Shown: positions 345-36,449, counted from the stretch's first letter. The stretch: 39,066 bases of DNA from Deltaproteobacteria bacterium (GCA_016203765.1 JACQMB010000091.1:1-39066), one strand, 5' to 3'. Notes: generated by a model not told the origin, from the sequence alone. Program-made: numbers and translations.

Positions 345-372
345 AAGTCCCTAGTCCCTAGTCCCTGGTCCC
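345..372. repeat. Heptamer tandem array (AAGTCCC TAGTCCC TAGTCCC TGGTCCC)
   Basis: Four 7-bp units read directly. Confidence 0.9.
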
Positions 373-687
373 TTCTTCATCCTCATTGATTTTTCTCCAA
401 ACATTCCAAACGGATGAAAAACCAGCATGAGCGAGCCGGTCCTGCCGAAGGCCGGAAGGATCGATCCCGAAAGCGACTTGTGCAGGAGCGAAGCCCGTAT
501 GAGGAGCGAAAATTTGTATGGGTTGCAAAATTTGGGAATTGACGAAGGAAAATTCCCAAATTTTAGCTGTTGCAACCCAACAAATTTTCGCGACGAATAG
601 GGCGAGCGGGCACGGAGCTTTCGGGATCGCATCCTGAAGGCCTTCGGCAAGGCCGGCCAGTGAAAAAAATTCATTTCTTCATCCTCA
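373..687. mobile_element. MITE-like palindromic insertion (386-674) flanked by 13-bp direct repeat TTCTTCATCCTCA
   Basis: Identical 13-mers at 373-385 and 675-687; imperfect inverted repeat about 435-657 with a perfect 14-bp central stem (527-540/551-564). Confidence 0.75.
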
Positions 688-2272
688 CAATCCCATACTC
701 ATACGGTCTTCCGGTAATCTGCGGCGTTTCGTGAAAGTTGTGCATGGTCGGCGGCGAGGCGATCTGCCACTCCAAAGTCTTTCCCCCCCACGGATTATCG
801 AGATCGGTCCGCCTCTTTTCAAAAAAAGTCTTTAAAAAATAAATCAGCATCAGCAGGAATCCCGCGAACAAAAACCAGGAGCCGACCGTTGAGGCGATAT
901 TTAAGTTGGTGAATTCAGCCGGGTAATCGTAATAGCGCCGCGGCATCCCAAGATAACCCATGAGGAATTGGGTAAAAAAGGTCAGATTGAAACCGATAAA
1001 AATCAGGGCCCACGCGATTTTGCCGGCCCACTCCGGATACATCCTGGCGAACATCTTGGGCCACCAGTAGTGAAATCCGGCCAGCAGACCCATCACCGTC
1101 CCTCCCATCATGACATAGTGAAAGTGGGCGACCACGAAATAGGTGTCGTGCAGATGGACATCGACCGAGAGGGCCGCCAAAAAGAGCCCGGTCAGGCCGC
1201 CGATCGTAAACATAAAGATAAACGAGACGGCGTAAAGCATGGGAGTTTTCAGCGAAATCGAACCGCCATACATCGTCGCCGTCCAGTTAAAGACCTTGAT
1301 CGCGGTGGGGACGGCCACAAACATCGTCAACAGGGAAAAAAGAAAATTGGCCAGCTCCGACTGCCCGCTGACGAACATATGATGCCCCCAAACAATAAAA
1401 CTGATAAAGGCGATCGCCAGACTCGAATAGGCAATCGCGTGATAGCCGAAGATATGTTTTCTCGAAAAGACCGGAATGACCTCAGAGATAATGCCCATGC
1501 CTGGCAAAATCATGATGTAAACGGCCGGGTGGGAATAAAACCAGAAGAAGTGCTGAAACAAGACCGGATCACCCCCCAGGGCCGGATCGAAGATGCCGAT
1601 TTTTATCACCCGCTCCATCACCAGCAACAGCGTCGTGATCCCGATCACCGGTGTGGCCAGGACCTGAATAATCGCCGTGGCATAAATCGCCCAGACAAAC
1701 AGCGGCAGACGGAAAAAGGTCATGCCGGGAGCCCTCAACTTGTGAACGGTTACAATGAAATTGAGGCCGGTCAAAATGCCGGAGAATCCCATGATAAAAA
1801 CGCCCAGCGTGATCAGAACCACGCTGGTGGCGCTTCGGATGCTGTAGGGGGTGTAAAAAGTCCAGCCGGTGTCGGCCCCGCGGGCCAACAGGGCCCAGAC
1901 GGCAAAGGAGGCCCCGGTGATAAAAATGTAGTAGCTGGCCAGATTCAATCGCGGGAAGGCGACATCCTTTGCCCCAATCATGATCGGCAGGAAAAAATTG
2001 CCCAATGCCGCCGGAATGATCGGAATGATGAACATAAAAACCATGATGGCGCCGTGGTAGGTGAAAAATTTGTTGTAGGTGTCGGCACTCATGATCGTCT
2101 CGCCCGGAAACATCAATTCGAGGCGAACCAAAAGGGCAAAAACGCCGCCGACCAGAAAGAATAACATGGCGGCGGCCAGATACATCAGCCCGATCCGTTT
2201 GTGGTCGAGGGTAGTCAGCCAGCTCTTCCACCCCTTTTCCGCTTCAAAAAAACTGACCTCGGCATGTGCCAT
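671..2272 (-). CDS. coxA: Cytochrome c oxidase subunit I, type A2
   Basis: [24 protein letters not shown] (YS form = A2), [23 protein letters not shown]; start moved to ATG 2272 just after the coxB stop. Confidence 0.97.
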
Positions 2273-2273
2273 T

Positions 2274-3239
2274 TTATTTTCCTCCCAGACTCTTGATAAA
2301 CCCAATCAAGGCATTGATCTCTTCATCGGTCAACTGTCCTTTGAATGTCGGCATGATCGGTTGAAACCCCTTCACGACTTTTTTAGCAGGTTCCATAAGC
2401 GATTCGCGAATGTAATTTTCATCCACGGTCACGGTTCCGCCCCCTTCCAATGCCTCGGTCGCTCCAAAAATCCCCTTTTGGGAGGGCCCCAGGCCTTTCG
2501 AACCGTCGGTGGTATGGCAGGCCTGACAGCCCTTCGCCATAAAAATTTCCCTTCCCTTTTCGGCCAGGCTCTTCGGTTCTGAGGCCGCTTCCCCTTCGGC
2601 CGCCCCGGCCTCGCCCAAAAATCCGGCCAACTGCCACGCCTCAAAGGCCGCCGGCTCCAAAACACGCACCGTGGCCAGCATTCCGGAGTGGGCCGCGCCG
2701 CAATATTCGGCGCAATAGACCGGGTGTTCGCCCGCCTCGGTCGCCTCAAACCAAAGACTGGTATAAGTATTGGGGATGATATCCTGCTTGACCCGGAAAT
2801 CCGGCACGAAAAAACTGTGCAAGACATCCTGCGAGGTCATGATCAGCTTCACCGGTTTTCCCTTGGGAACGACCAATTCATTGGTCAGACGGCGGCCGTC
2901 GGGATATTGAATTTCCCACAACCACTGTTTAGCGATCACGTTGATTTCCATCGCGCCGGCCGGGGCCGACCTCAATTTTTTATAATCGGCCCAACCCCAG
3001 TAAAAAATCACCATGACCCAGACCAGCAAGATGACGGCCACCGAGAGCTCGGTGGCGGTATGGCCGGTGAGATAGAGGCTTTCTTTTTCCGGAATTTTTT
3101 TTCGCCGGAAACGGACCAGAAAGATCAGTTTTCCCAAAACAATAATCAAAAAACTGGCCACGCTGGTCCACAAAACAAAGTCAAAGAGGGTGTCGACCGC
3201 GCCGGCCATCGTGGAGGCTTGGGGCAAACGCCATGTCAT
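2274..3239 (-). CDS. coxB: Cytochrome c oxidase subunit II with C-terminal cytochrome c (caa3 type)
   Basis: QWLW, DVLHSF, CuA motif [12 protein letters not shown], heme c motif CQACH. Confidence 0.96.
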
Positions 3240-4024
3240 GTCTTTCTCTTCCTTCCCAAACGATAGACCAGAAAACTTAAAGCGAAAATGGTTGCCGCCC
3301 CTCCCGCCTTCATCGCGTTGCTGGCAAACAAGACATATTTATTGGCCTTGGGATCATAGCCGTAACAAAAGAGCAAAAGGCGATCGACTATCGTCCCCAC
3401 CTTCCCCTCCGAAGCCTCGACCAGGGCCAGGCGCAAGTCGCGCGGGCTGAATTGAATGCCGAACAGGGTGCGGGCCAGTTTTCCATCCGGCGTCAGCACA
3501 AACAGGCCGGCGGCGTGGGCGTATTGCTTGATTTCGGGATCGTATTGATAGCGAAAACCGACGGCGTCGGCTAATTGGCGGACGTTTGCTTCGGTTGCCG
3601 TCAAAAAATGCCAGCCAGTCTCGCTCCCCGAACGCCCATATTCTTTCAAGTAATTGGCCTTTTTGGTGCTCGCCAGATCGGGGGTTTCATTCGGATCAAT
3701 GCTGACCGCGACCATTTCGAACTCCCGGCCGGCACTCCATTTCAGCCCCTTCAATCCTTCAAGTGTTCCATTCAATAAGTAGGTGCAAAGGTTCGGACAT
3801 CCGTAATAAACCAGCTCCAAAATAACCGGTTTGTTCTCTTTGAAATATTTTCCCAGGGTCACGGTTTCGCCGGCCTCATCGGTAAATTCCAGCTCCAGGG
3901 GAAAGACCGTTCCCAGTTTGGGATCGATGCCGACGTTCTGGAGCATGGCGGGCGTGGGCTCCGCGGCTAAAAGACTTGCAGATAGCAAAGCCAAGATTAG
4001 GGCCATGGACCACAGTCTCCTCAC
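3236..4024 (-). CDS. SCO1/SenC family copper chaperone
   Basis: YYGCPNLC (CxxxC), VSIDP, YAHAAG; GTG 4024 overlaps the actF stop (ATG 4006 is an alternative start). Confidence 0.9.
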   Translation of the reverse strand: MRRLWSMALILALLSASLLAAEPTPAMLQNVGIDPKLGTVFPLELEFTDEAGETVTLGKYFKENKPVILELVYYGCPNLCTYLLNGTLEGLKGLKWSAGREFEMVAVSIDPNETPDLASTKKANYLKEYGRSGSETGWHFLTATEANVRQLADAVGFRYQYDPEIKQYAHAAGLFVLTPDGKLARTLFGIQFSPRDLRLALVEASEGKVGTIVDRLLLFCYGYDPKANKYVLFASNAMKAGGAATIFALSFLVYRLGRKRKT

Positions 4025-35301: not shown

Positions 35302-35487
35302 TTACCAGCTCGCCTTTCCTACACCGGGGATTTCCCCCTTCAAAGCCATTTTTCGAAAGCAGAGACGGCACATCCCAAAACGCCGCAAAAAGGCCCTGGC
35401 CCGGCCGCACAAGGGACAACGGTTGTACCGCCTCGTCTTAAATTTCGGTTTCCGCTGTGACTTCACCAGCAAACACGTTCGAGCCAT
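35302..35487 (-). CDS. rpsN: 30S ribosomal protein S14, type Z
   Basis: 61 aa; RCPLCGR, CRLCFR, KASW. Confidence 0.97.
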
Positions 35488-35489
35488 GG

Positions 35490-36011
35490 CTACCTTTCCC
35501 GAAAGGGCATCCCGAAGTTTTTCAACAGGGCCTTTCCCTCTTCGTTGTTTTTCGCCGTTGTTACAAAAGTAATGTTCATGCCGAAAACACGCTCGATTTT
35601 GTCGTGATCGATTTCGGAAAAAATGGTCTGCTCGGTCAGCCCCAAGGTATAGTTGCCCCGCCCGTCAAATCCCTTCGGGGAGACCCCCTTGAAATCACGC
35701 ACCCGCGGCAAAACAATGTTGATCAGCCGAGTCAGAAAGGCATGCATCTTCTTGCGCCGCAAGGTCACGCAACAACCGATCGGCTGGCCGGCCCGCAATT
35801 TAAAATTGGAAATCGACTTGCGAGCGCGGCTCAAAAACGGGCGCTGGCCGGTGATCTGCGCCACTTCCAGGGCGACTTTTTCCAGGACCTTGCGATCCTG
35901 CGCGGCCTCCTTGAGCGAGGTGTTCACAACGATCTTCTCCAGACGCGGGGTTTCCATCACGTTTTTGGCCTGCGTTTCTTTGTTCGTTTCCTTGTTCGTT
36001 TCTTTGTTCAT
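35490..36011 (-). CDS. rplE: 50S ribosomal protein L5 with atypical N-terminus
   Basis: [35 protein letters not shown]. Confidence 0.96.
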
Positions 36012-36343
36012 TTCTTCTTTTTCACCTCAATGGCCTGGCCGCAACGGGCGCAAAGGCGGTCCTTTTTTCCCTCTTTGTCCCGCTTCACCTTGACGCGCAC
36101 CCCCCGGTTGCACTTGGTGCAGTAAGGCATCAGCAGCGCGAGGGACAAGGGGGCCTCTTTTTCCAAAACTCCCCCTTGCTCTTTTTGGCTGCGGGGCCGC
36201 AGATGCCGTTTGACCTTGTTCAATCCCTCCACCAAGGCCCGTTCCTTTTTCATTAAAATCCCCAGGATCGTGCCGGTCTTTCCCTTTTCACGGCCGCCCT
36301 GAACCTGAACGGTGTCTCCGGTTTTGATGCGCGCGAGTGTCAT
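36008..36343 (-). CDS. rplX: 50S ribosomal protein L24
   Basis: [33 protein letters not shown] 36343 preferred. Confidence 0.95.
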
Positions 36344-36350
36344 TGTTTTT

Positions 36351-36449
36351 GGACCATGGACCACGGACCAAGGACCACGAACCTGTTTCCCCTCTTCAGT
36401 CCGTAGTCCGCAGTCCGTAGTCCGTAGTCCCTCTTTAGTCCGTAGTCCC
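36351..36449. repeat. Inverted pair of heptamer arrays (GGACCAN x4, then AGTCCGT x5 + 2) between rplN and rplX
   Basis: Read directly; fills almost the whole intergenic gap. Confidence 0.93.

Follow-up and report, generated by a model that had tools for sequence, protein, structure and literature searches.

How does one family of seven-nucleotide tandem repeats come to occupy gene junctions and, in frame, conserved protein genes at unlinked sites? The question is raised by a 39,066-nt stretch of DNA (the window; GCA_016203765.1, JACQMB010000091.1:1-39066) from an uncultured groundwater bacterium of the Deltaproteobacteria, whose assembly (G000) comprises 1.47 Mb in 157 contigs and is 68% complete. 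Together with five relatives it was treated as a family of six genomes (G000-G005), of which G004 is 96% complete. Reports of dispersed heptamer arrays go back to 1990, and we know of no accepted origin or function for them. While the kind of repeat is already known, what is new here is that the arrays are old and that related genomes hold the same sites with their own version of the unit. The favored reading, tentative at a probability of about 0.4, is that the arrays form one genome-wide STRR-like heptad family, kept alike by slippage, inter-locus exchange and selection.

Heptamer arrays of the window

The original prediction listed nine heptamer arrays, and all were recovered by Tandem Repeats Finder (TRF), together with a tenth, inverted array at 36398-36430. 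As in STRR-type arrays, 7-nt units follow each other head to tail, and TRF reported period 7 at every window locus. The arrays are as follows, with TRF intervals in brackets.

344..373, minus strand: cox1-coxIII spacer array of four units, GGACCAG GGACTAG GGACTAG GGACTTA (TRF 346-373)
5202..5250, minus strand: ActE tail array of six GGAC units with one degenerate unit (TRF 5219-5250)
8952..8987, plus strand, antisense to ActB: ActB array 1, GGACCAG x4 and GGACCTT (TRF 8952-8985)
9168..9202, minus strand, sense in ActB: ActB array 2, GGACCAG x4 and GGACCAA (TRF 9169-9202)
10237..10299, plus strand: ActB composite insert of ~63 nt, consisting of heptamers, a ~24-nt small dispersed repeat and heptamers (TRF 10237-10254)
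17274..17308, plus strand: kinase site A array of five units in the linker before a membrane helix (TRF 17272-17306)
17435..17525, plus strand: kinase site B array of thirteen units, 12 with a GGAC core, after the membrane helix (TRF 17434-17526)
31618..31654, minus strand: secY-adk array of five units, between the secY stop and the adk P-loop (TRF 31621-31654)
36351..36450, both orientations: rplN-rplX spacer arrays, 2 sense and 5 sense units, an 18-nt spacer and 4 antisense units (TRF 36350-36383, besides the inverted array)

These arrays occupy gene junctions, protein termini, and variable loops or linkers. Seven had been proposed to be translated; six certainly are (the ActE tail, three in ActB and two in the kinase), while the one in Adk is only probably translated. 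The cox1-coxIII array lies directly upstream of the coxIII Shine-Dalgarno site, followed by AAAGAGGGAGGGG and a TTG start at 326. Pfam gave no match for a 107-aa ORF at 351-674 that this array would end, and four relatives lack a homologue; the ORF appears to be a spurious one created by the array. The ActE array is translated in frame as the C-terminal tail RRGTTDYGPRTTDQGSGTE, which ends at the stop codon, and the relatives carry different heptamer arrays at this site. In ActB, array 1 is read as KVPGPWSLVPGP within a variable loop, with no net length gain compared with relatives, and G005 carries (GGTACCA)3.6 there. Array 2 is read as WTRDQGPGTRDQ; the same codon has five units in G005, and in G002 just one GGACTGG with an A run after it. 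The third ActB locus does contain an array, yet it is a composite rather than the plain heptamer array first described. Its small dispersed repeat core lies at about 10263-10282, and the whole insert is read as VRSPLRQAQGTARSVVRSPS, adding ~16 aa to ActB. It is missing from G002 and G003, the family relatives covered there, and from more distant ActB sequences.

The first kinase array (17274..17308) is read as MDRGPGTMDHGPE. Both G000 and G005 have five units ending in GGACCTG at this site, offset by 4 nt and read in different frames, which argues that the DNA and not the peptide is kept. Kinase site B is read as WTEDRGPWTVDRGPWTVDQRPRTTDQGPRTT and is a heptamer array in four of five relatives, each with its own unit, while G001 retains only a decayed trace. 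The secY-adk array is present in G000 only, where the ancestral adk ATG has become CTT; translation would thus start at a GTG overlapping the secY TAG or at a TTG (MVLIGPPG), and from the GTG the array would read MTDHGLRTTDYGPKSLR-. For annotation, such arrays shift predicted starts, as in adk, and give spurious ORFs, as at 351-674. Between rplN and rplX, the arms pair into a ~31 bp stem (fold -52 kcal/mol, z = -6.4); the relatives have a TAATG stop/start overlap or a few-nt spacer, with a two-unit remnant in G005. An Rfam 15 search of the window at the gathering threshold returned a single tRNA and no array match. Read support was checked through contigs assembled from four groundwater runs of one study, which cover the two kinase arrays (17064-17846) as well as the 10237 locus (9175-10283) without any difference; these contigs, which drop rare variants, contain no array length variants or indels. 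The arrays are real DNA, and matching sites occur in independent related genomes too.

Genome-wide family and published counterparts

A genome-wide scan of G000 found 176 arrays of at least three GGAC cores spaced by 7 (91 on the plus and 85 on the minus strand), compared with a median of 1 for all other 4-mers. This bears out the enrichment that the original prediction had expected, and the arrays are far beyond chance expectation. In a spacing control, 173 GGAC chains were found at 7, 0 or 1 at 4-6 and 8-12, and 132 at 14, and 163 of the 235 period-7 TRF rows genome-wide were accounted for by six GGAC units. As in STRR-type systems, one unit family is found at many unlinked sites, spread across the 157 contigs. 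Uninterrupted G000 chains (n=172) contain 3, 4, 5, 6, 7, 8 or 10 units in 37, 30, 88, 8, 3, 5 and 1 cases, respectively. Sampling 204 kb of G005 gave 49 arrays; 41 of these are five units long, and 31 of the 49 close with GGACCAA, which is followed by an AARCA-like tail. A typical module spans 35 bp and repeats the GGAC-Y-R-Y unit five times in tandem, its final unit being degenerate and followed by an A-rich tail. Some modules stand alone and others form convergent inverted pairs that fold into long hairpins, with many such pairs in G005 and G000; a nested 24-nt small repeat is present in some. Inside one array, the units end in the same base and their differences are mostly transitions, a pattern that slippage and homogenisation would produce; unit positions 5-7 are heterogeneous within one genome. 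No five-unit sequence pattern is found at more than two of the 88 five-unit G000 arrays, giving no sign of a recent burst.

The gene context was scored with a crude ad hoc ORF caller, which limits the intergenic and ORF counts: among 175 G000 arrays, 38 were intergenic, 22 at ORF edges and 115 inside ORFs, the latter divided into 70 sense and 45 antisense, with 40 in the first decile of the ORF. Restricting the count to arrays deep in strong ORFs left 48, of which 34 were sense (phases 10/10/14) and 14 antisense (phases 7/3/4); translation passes through the arrays in each of the three phases and on either strand. They add floppy peptides, even signal-peptide cores, to proteins. The suggestion that arrays in genes use stop-free units holds in the window but is not absolute elsewhere, as G005 gltX contains a GGACTAG unit whose phase keeps it from being decoded as a stop.

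Several repeat families resemble these arrays. STRR heptanucleotide arrays were reportedly described in heterocystous cyanobacteria by Mazel in 1990, and Elhai et al. are said to have described in 2008 small dispersed repeats (SDR) of 21-27 nt inside tandem heptamers of Nostoc punctiforme. The present arrays are similar to the latter in carrying a ~24-nt insert after GG(A/T)CC in 13 array-embedded copies, although its sequence family is different. The core of this repeat occurs in at least 119 metagenome stretches, with heptamer flanks around none of the 87 metagenome copies examined. Rickettsia palindromic elements, ~100-150 bp palindromes tolerated in frame in surface segments of conserved protein genes, share the in-frame insertion, whereas the present elements are heptamer arrays of 21-91 nt and not palindromes.

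The best reading is that the arrays are STRR-like heptad modules akin to the Geobacter GGACCGG elements. According to the accessible part of the Geobacter metallireducens report, the multicopy heptanucleotide elements have the consensus GGACCGG/GGGACCG, and the authors, offering no test, termed them putative regulatory RNA elements (Aklujkar et al. 2009, PMC2700814). A GGACC-core heptanucleotide repeated in tandem, within and between genes, is common to the two families, and the present one likewise combines a GGAC[CT]-core heptamer, a fixed small number of copies, and intragenic and intergenic locations. Yet the Geobacter elements have four units and 49 copies, while here the modal number is five and ~175 arrays are found in two thirds of a genome; in the same part of that report, orthologous-site comparison, dialects, hairpin pairs and a nested repeat do not appear (PMC2700814). 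The GGGAATC or GGGGA(T/C)T arrays of Xanthomonas and Nostoc likewise consist, as far as the accessible text goes, of 7-mers in tandem at dispersed sites, a single unit dominating in each genome; they lie mostly at gene ends, with some inverted pairs, and Xanthomonas positions are often common to related species with varying length and sequence (Rehm et al. 2015, PMC4692102). However, they are described there as intergenic with G-rich, quadruplex-capable units, whereas the present arrays are to a large share read in frame, are quantised at five units and belong to a different host lineage. The TAACTGA direct repeats of Beggiatoaceae lie, in the sections seen of their description, largely just upstream of starts, including those of ribosomal protein operons, with some inside ORFs, and translational regulation was proposed there without a test (MacGregor 2015, PMC4679880). 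Unlike the present arrays, their unit contains stop codons and mostly takes one orientation upstream of starts.

Age of the sites and genome-specific units

Matches to the array pattern number 185-276 in three family genomes and 0-14 in their close relatives. Arrays are found at identical codons of gltX in all six genomes and at one kinase site in five of six, and base-level orthology was seen at gltX, the C68 and C148 sites, ActB and the kinase. At gltX, the units are GGACCGG/GGACTAC in G000, GGACCAT and others in G005, GGACCAT/GGACAAG in G004, GAACCTC in G002, GGACATC in G001, and GATCCAC in G003. Genome-specific units, which across genomes can be summarized as GGACYRY, GGACCAW, GGACATC, GAACCTC, and GATCCAC, recur at kinase site B, the C68 site and the ActE tail; in G002, for instance, GAACCTC occupies the kinase as well as gltX, and G001 has GGACATC at three places, gltX, ActE and the C68 site. 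The pattern GAACY has 62 matches in G002. That each genome has its own unit at orthologous sites, common to its other arrays, points to a process or constraint acting across loci.

For 16 of the 24 placeable G005 array clusters, the orthologous interval of G000 also contains an array, compared with a mean of 1.5 and a maximum of 7 for random intervals (2000 trials), so most arrays predate the family. The modules existed before the six genomes diverged from their ancestor, and the GGAC core, the 7-nt period and, at the compared G000-G005 sites, mostly the unit number are seen to be maintained as a nucleotide pattern and not as a peptide. Alignment of host genes to orthologues yielded empty sites in relatives for the 10237 ActB insert and the secY-adk array; the arrays in gltX and the kinase are shared. 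The six genomes represent a natural experiment, as identical codons of essential genes carry a different unit in each genome. Period, unit sequence and position, usually confounded, can thereby be separated, and a gene-content and co-variation search for the responsible factor becomes practical.

Origin and maintenance of the arrays

The claim that local slippage alone is insufficient stood, given one unit type at ~175 sites and genome-own units at orthologous sites. That each array arose independently by local slippage from a chance proto-repeat, with loci unlinked, is hardly credible. Heptamer repeats are over-represented in many bacteria, as quoted in the accessible part of PMC4692102, and the single GGACTGG at the empty G002 ActB site and the local GGTACCA array of G005 would fit such origins. 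Yet GGAC is the core of 173 chains, where the median for other 4-mers is 1, the same genome-specific 7-mers stand at unlinked orthologous sites (GAACCTC in G002, GGACATC in G001), and each of the three array-rich genomes has both MutS and MutL, leaving no link of arrays to mismatch-repair loss. It is also very improbable that the arrays are written by a polymerase carrying its own template, be it telomerase-like or some other reverse transcriptase. An internal RNA template, mutating into a genome-specific unit, would naturally explain both the units at orthologous sites and the constant period of 7 across unrelated units, but RVT_1, expected of a retroelement (DGR or telomerase-like), was found only in G005 and G001 and not in G000 (68% complete), G004 (96%), G003 or G002. 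Moreover, no reverse transcriptase locus has arrays nearby, and the heterogeneous positions 5-7 within one genome speak against this reading.

It is unlikely, though less so, that the 35-bp module or the hairpin doublet is a miniature mobile element, of REP/REPIN or MITE type and non-autonomous, which is carried in trans into permissive hot spots by a transposase encoded elsewhere. REP/REPIN elements with their RAYT transposases are, in the accessible part of their description, likewise dispersed ~35 bp modules, often inverted hairpin doublets at gene junctions (Bertels and Rainey 2011, PMC3116915). The present modules have a defined size, polar structure and conserved 3' end, and convergent doublets are found at rplN-rplX and as pairs in G000 and G005 (~12 pairs among the 49 G005 arrays by manual reading). 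Gains appear lineage-specific at secY-adk (G000 only) and beside rplX (G004 only), the rplN-rplX copy of G005 is a 5'-truncated two-unit copy, and Y1 HUH transposase genes occur in G000, G004, and G005. However, these genes are equally many in array-poor G003 (5) and G002 (6), and no array lies within ~1.5 kb of the 8 Y1 loci checked, or of 12 Y1-transposase or reverse transcriptase loci when both are counted. Unlike REP/REPIN as described there, the single module is not palindromic and is internally periodic. Identical copies are almost absent, most sites are ancient and common to relatives, and neither target-site duplications nor a consistent target were observed. The original proposal that a mobile element or templated addition is still seeding arrays is thus not borne out, given the 16 of 24 old shared sites, the missing burst and the lack of a reverse transcriptase or HUH link.

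A somewhat better case, although still one to be doubted, can be made for the modules serving in cis as binding sites of a factor that recognizes five GGAC cores with a period of 7 nt. The factor could be a dsDNA binder, such as a nucleoid or replication protein, or a ring-shaped oligomer contacting ssDNA or RNA, with purifying selection holding core, period and number, and the dialect reflecting co-evolution with the factor. The GGAC core and five-unit length are kept in G000/G005 orthologues independently of reading frame while positions 5-7 and flanking genes (~70-75% nt identity) have diverged. The length mode at five is sharp, and the near-unique five-unit patterns suggest old arrays that were not recently copied. 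In array-poor relatives, intergenic copies are cleanly lost and coding copies have drifted. An analogy is offered by the TAACTGA heptamer sets upstream of start codons, proposed as regulator sites in the accessible part of PMC4679880. On the other hand, no candidate factor was found, and the ActE tail has unrelated units, AAATYCT versus GGACTAC, at one site. Both orientations to transcription are common, which fits a dsDNA site but not a simple RNA motif, and a change in factor specificity matched by tens to hundreds of sites would be hard to reach by selection alone. The broader proposal that a trans-acting machine or factor reads or writes the arrays, with specificity differing between sister genomes (GGAC, GAAC, and GATC cores), is improbable as well. 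If true, it would represent re-targetable genome-wide sequence maintenance, with hundreds of sites, including essential-gene codons, matched to a recognition sequence, and a component could be found by comparing the six genomes.

The modules are probably kept alike by inter-locus exchange or by a binding factor. For the favored combination of slippage, exchange and selection, it is proposed that replication slippage creates and resizes arrays and that short-tract template switching or gene conversion among dispersed arrays homogenises the units of one genome, which would yield its dialect. Selection would then purge copies that break the frame, put a stop codon in phase or upset a folded domain. 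No dedicated enzyme for array maintenance was found, and 35-bp arrays are poor substrates for RecA-dependent conversion, which counts against exchange. Frequent long-tract conversion is excluded by the near-uniqueness of the five-unit patterns, and only exchange at the scale of units would fit; a conversion event was not seen directly in the genomes compared. Orthologous arrays of G000 and G005 both have five units at several sites, which speaks against slippage being frequent; selection for a defined site of five units would explain this equally well. Conservation of unit number between genomes at coding sites also argues against phase-variation switching.

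Heptamer arrays in the window and its genome

All nine arrays of 7-nt units that the original prediction had claimed were recovered by Tandem Repeats Finder, as was a further array, an inverted partner.

Period-7 arrays in the window, Tandem Repeats Finder
346-373: intergenic array, shortly before the ribosome-binding site of coxIII
5219-5250: array
8952-8985: array, ActB site 3
9169-9202: array, ActB site 2
10237-10254: array, within the composite ActB site 1
17272-17306: array, kinase site A
17434-17526: array, kinase site B
31621-31654: array
36350-36383: array
36398-36430: further array, inverted partner

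The window is the entire contig C21 of a 1.47-Mb genome, G000 (157 contigs, 68% complete, 54% GC), whose ActB is at most 51% identical to the ActB of genomes labelled Oligoflexia or Bdellovibrionota; the sequencing runs containing the window are groundwater metagenomes. A genome-wide scan, counting as an array at least three GGAC cores spaced by 7 nt, confirmed a dispersed family with 176 arrays (91 on the + and 85 on the - strand), the median for other 4-mers being 1. GGAC chains numbered 173 at a spacing of 7 nt and 0-1 at each of 4-6 and 8-12. Tandem Repeats Finder rows with a period of 7 came to 235, compared with 52 for period 6 and 60 for period 8; six GGAC units account for 163 of the 235. 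Contigs assembled from four sequencing runs, all belonging to one study, cover both kinase arrays and the 10237 locus with zero differences. Logan contigs are broken within three arrays, and none of the arrays has an indel listed; such contigs cannot reveal copy-number variants either way. The heptamer arrays are real and highly non-random.

With GGAC oriented forward, the unit consensus is GGAC[CT][AG][CGT]; the last base is usually common to the units of one array, and differences are mostly transitions. Array size is quantised: among uninterrupted chains, 37 have 3 units, 30 have 4, 88 have 5, 8 have 6, 3 have 7, 5 have 8 and 1 has 10. The terminal unit is degenerate (GGACCAA, GGACTAA, GGACTTG) and leads into A-rich sequence; purines predominate in the 5' flank. 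Many of the arrays are arranged as convergent inverted pairs. The one between rplN and rplX forms a ~31-bp stem on folding (-52 kcal/mol, z = -6.4); an Rfam search matched no family. Tests for a master module found no position-specific composition across units 1-4 in G000 (p 0.2-0.9) and a weak effect in the relative G005 (p 0.009 at unit position 7).

According to a crude ORF caller made for this analysis, called ORFs contain 115 of 175 arrays in G000, 70 of them sense and 45 antisense, with 22 more at ORF edges and 38 between genes; the first decile, in which the start is uncertain, holds 40 of the 115. Deep inside strong ORFs there are 48 arrays, in all three phases and on both strands. In the window, Pfam identified COX1, ActD, NrfD-like ActC, ActB, multihaem ActA, SecY, Adk, L14, L24 and a Ser/Thr kinase with PEGA domains, the membrane helix of which is flanked by arrays on both sides. 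With no stop codon ahead of it, the array in the ActE tail is read. All three ActB arrays occupy variable segments: site 1 adds ~16 aa that are absent from G002 and G003, the family relatives covered there, and from more distant ActB; site 2 has an array at the identical codon in G000 and G005; and at site 3 the array replaces a loop with no net gain. Only G000 has an array at the secY-adk junction. Here the ancestral adk ATG has become CTT, so that the start is a GTG overlapping the secY stop or a TTG; the former would put the array into translation, the latter would shorten the first strand of Adk. The ORF at 351-674, seemingly terminated by the 345 array, was rejected as a gene (no Pfam match, no homologue in four relatives).

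Conserved positions and genome-specific units

Matches to the four-core pattern number 276 in both G000 and G005, 185 in G004, 14 in G002, 3 in G001 and 0 in G003, and 0-16 in each of the 87 remaining genomes sampled from the phylum; the tree from SecY and Adk is (G000, G004, ((G005, G003), (G002, G001))). Within 204 kb sampled from G005 there are 49 arrays, 41 with five units and 31 with GGACCAA as the last unit and an AARCA-like tail after it.

Placement on G000 succeeded for 24 of the 36 array clusters in G005. For 16 of the 24, the orthologous interval contains an array of three units or more; random intervals gave an expectation of 1.5 and no more than 7 in 2000 trials. Among intervals of at most 250 bp, the fraction is 6 of 10, and base-level inspection found identical positions in gltX, two further coding sites, ActB and the kinase. 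The array sites are mostly ancient. In gltX, all six genomes of the family carry an array at one codon, each with its particular unit.

Units at the gltX site
G000: GGACCGG/GGACTAC
G005: GGACCAT and others
G004: GGACCAT/GGACAAG
G002: GGACCTC, then GAACCTC
G001: GGACATC
G003: GATCCAC, with its own hairpin insert

These dialects recur within their genomes: GAACCTC also in the kinase of G002, where the GAACY pattern has 62 matches, GGACATC of G001 also at the C68 site and in the ActE tail, and GATYCRC in the kinase of G003. The ActE tails of G005 and G002 bear AATYCT-type heptamers, so that the period and the position are longer-lived than the unit. Kinase site A holds five units in both G000 and G005, the last being GGACCTG, yet one array is shifted by 4 nt against the other with respect to the codons around it, and the peptides differ in frame. 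Mutation bias was rejected as the cause of the dialects, as sampled GC contents of 54, 50.5, 48, 44.7 and 44.5% leave the core changes unexplained.

G003 does have short arrays, built on other cores. It is clean at many junction and terminal sites with arrays in G005, including the PdxA N-terminus, a signal peptide and the rplN-rplX overlap. In G005, an antisense array (L034:11719-11826) encodes the hydrophobic core of the predicted signal peptide (MRYKRIIKCLLLVLCPLSIVHGPAFA/QA), where an ordinary signal peptide stands in G003.

Origin of the arrays

The arrays of G000 belong to a kind of repeat that is already known but unexplained. The closest published case is Geobacter metallireducens, which has 49 elements of four GGACCGG heptanucleotides, within and between genes (PMC2700814). 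Related cases are the cyanobacterial STRRs and the heptamers of Xanthomonas and Nostoc (PMC4692102) and the TAACTGA sets of Beggiatoaceae (PMC4679880). The present case adds a six-genome comparison showing conserved positions with genome-specific units.

Local slippage alone is excluded, as had been anticipated, because units are shared across loci. Active seeding by a mobile element, also suggested earlier, fared less well: a recent burst is unlikely because most sites are ancient, sequence patterns are near-unique (among the 88 five-unit arrays in G000, no five-unit pattern is shared by more than two) and no target duplication is visible around the arrays. Nor did the enzymes considered fit. 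RVT_1 was not found in G000, G004, G003 or G002, and since neither G000 (68% complete) nor G004 (96% complete) yielded it, a reverse transcriptase is not required and was rejected as the writer. A HUH/RAYT link was likewise dropped, as the phyletic pattern of Y1 genes does not track the arrays and none of eight Y1 loci adjoins one. Loss of mismatch repair does not account for array richness, MutS and MutL being present in all three array-rich genomes (G000, G004, G005).

The tentatively preferred explanation, with a probability of roughly 0.4, is that replication slippage would act on arrays in combination with unit-scale exchange between them ('molecular drive'). The other remaining reading, held less probable than the first, is purifying selection on a putative five-heptad binding site that would co-evolve with its factor; it accords with the constancy of unit number, and with the conservation of the core regardless of frame, at least as well as the first. 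As a separate observation, G002 (98% complete), the genome with the GAACYTN dialect, was the only one in which MutS_V and MutL_C went undetected.

Other repeats in and around the arrays

A small repeat of ~24 nt, with the core CCTTCGACAAGCTCAGGGC, interrupts 13 arrays after GG(A/T)CC.

Copies of the nested ~24-nt repeat
Window, ~10263-10282: ActB copy
Other G000 contigs: C25, C50, C59, C60, C63, C91, C102, C105, C112, C126, C144

Its 19-nt core has exact matches in at least 119 metagenome stretches of 35 to 72% GC. Among the 87 copies in 80 metagenome loci listed, none has heptamer flanks; the copies usually lie within hairpins with variable stems, many of the GTTC...GAAC type. The core represents a small element spread across phyla; no described family is known to us for it, and a full-text literature search gave no related match. 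Small repeats are reportedly nested in Nostoc heptamer arrays as well. A parallel to the G000 repeat exists in G003, where the heptamer arrays of gltX (L138) and the kinase (L128), two coding sites that are not linked, contain this genome's own insert, the small hairpin GCCTGCCCGCCGGNAGTTTGGCGGGATC.

Unrelated G/C-rich hairpin repeats of the CCCCTCCC...GGGGAGGGG type occupy ActB site 2 (L004) and L062 (opposite G005 L034:4360) in G003. G005 and G000 have heptamer arrays at these sites; thus, permissive sites collect different repeat families. A ~100-bp segment of G005 (L034:11006-11103) has matches, 70-98% identical, at many positions in G003; it represents a further dispersed repeat or else a tRNA-like element.

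G000 also has a few GAACCAA arrays and another, minor family of heptamers, AGTCATG/ACTCATG, with 8 Tandem Repeats Finder rows. Immediately preceding the ActC ATG, the ActB-ActC spacer holds convergent tandem 8-mers, three GTGTTCAT-like then four ATAAACAC-like, which make up a hairpin with octamer arms, comparable to the heptamer pairs.

Further repeats
Window, 29390-29404 and 29807-29823; G000 contigs C79, C108, C126, C152: minor heptamer family or GAACCAA arrays
Window, 7678-7744: octamer pair of the ActB-ActC spacer
Window, 12650-13863: 339-bp unit, 3.6 copies at 90% identity

The 339-bp unit lies in a 1158-aa ORF (12583-16059, - strand), whose sole Pfam match is weak and Tpt1/KptA-like.
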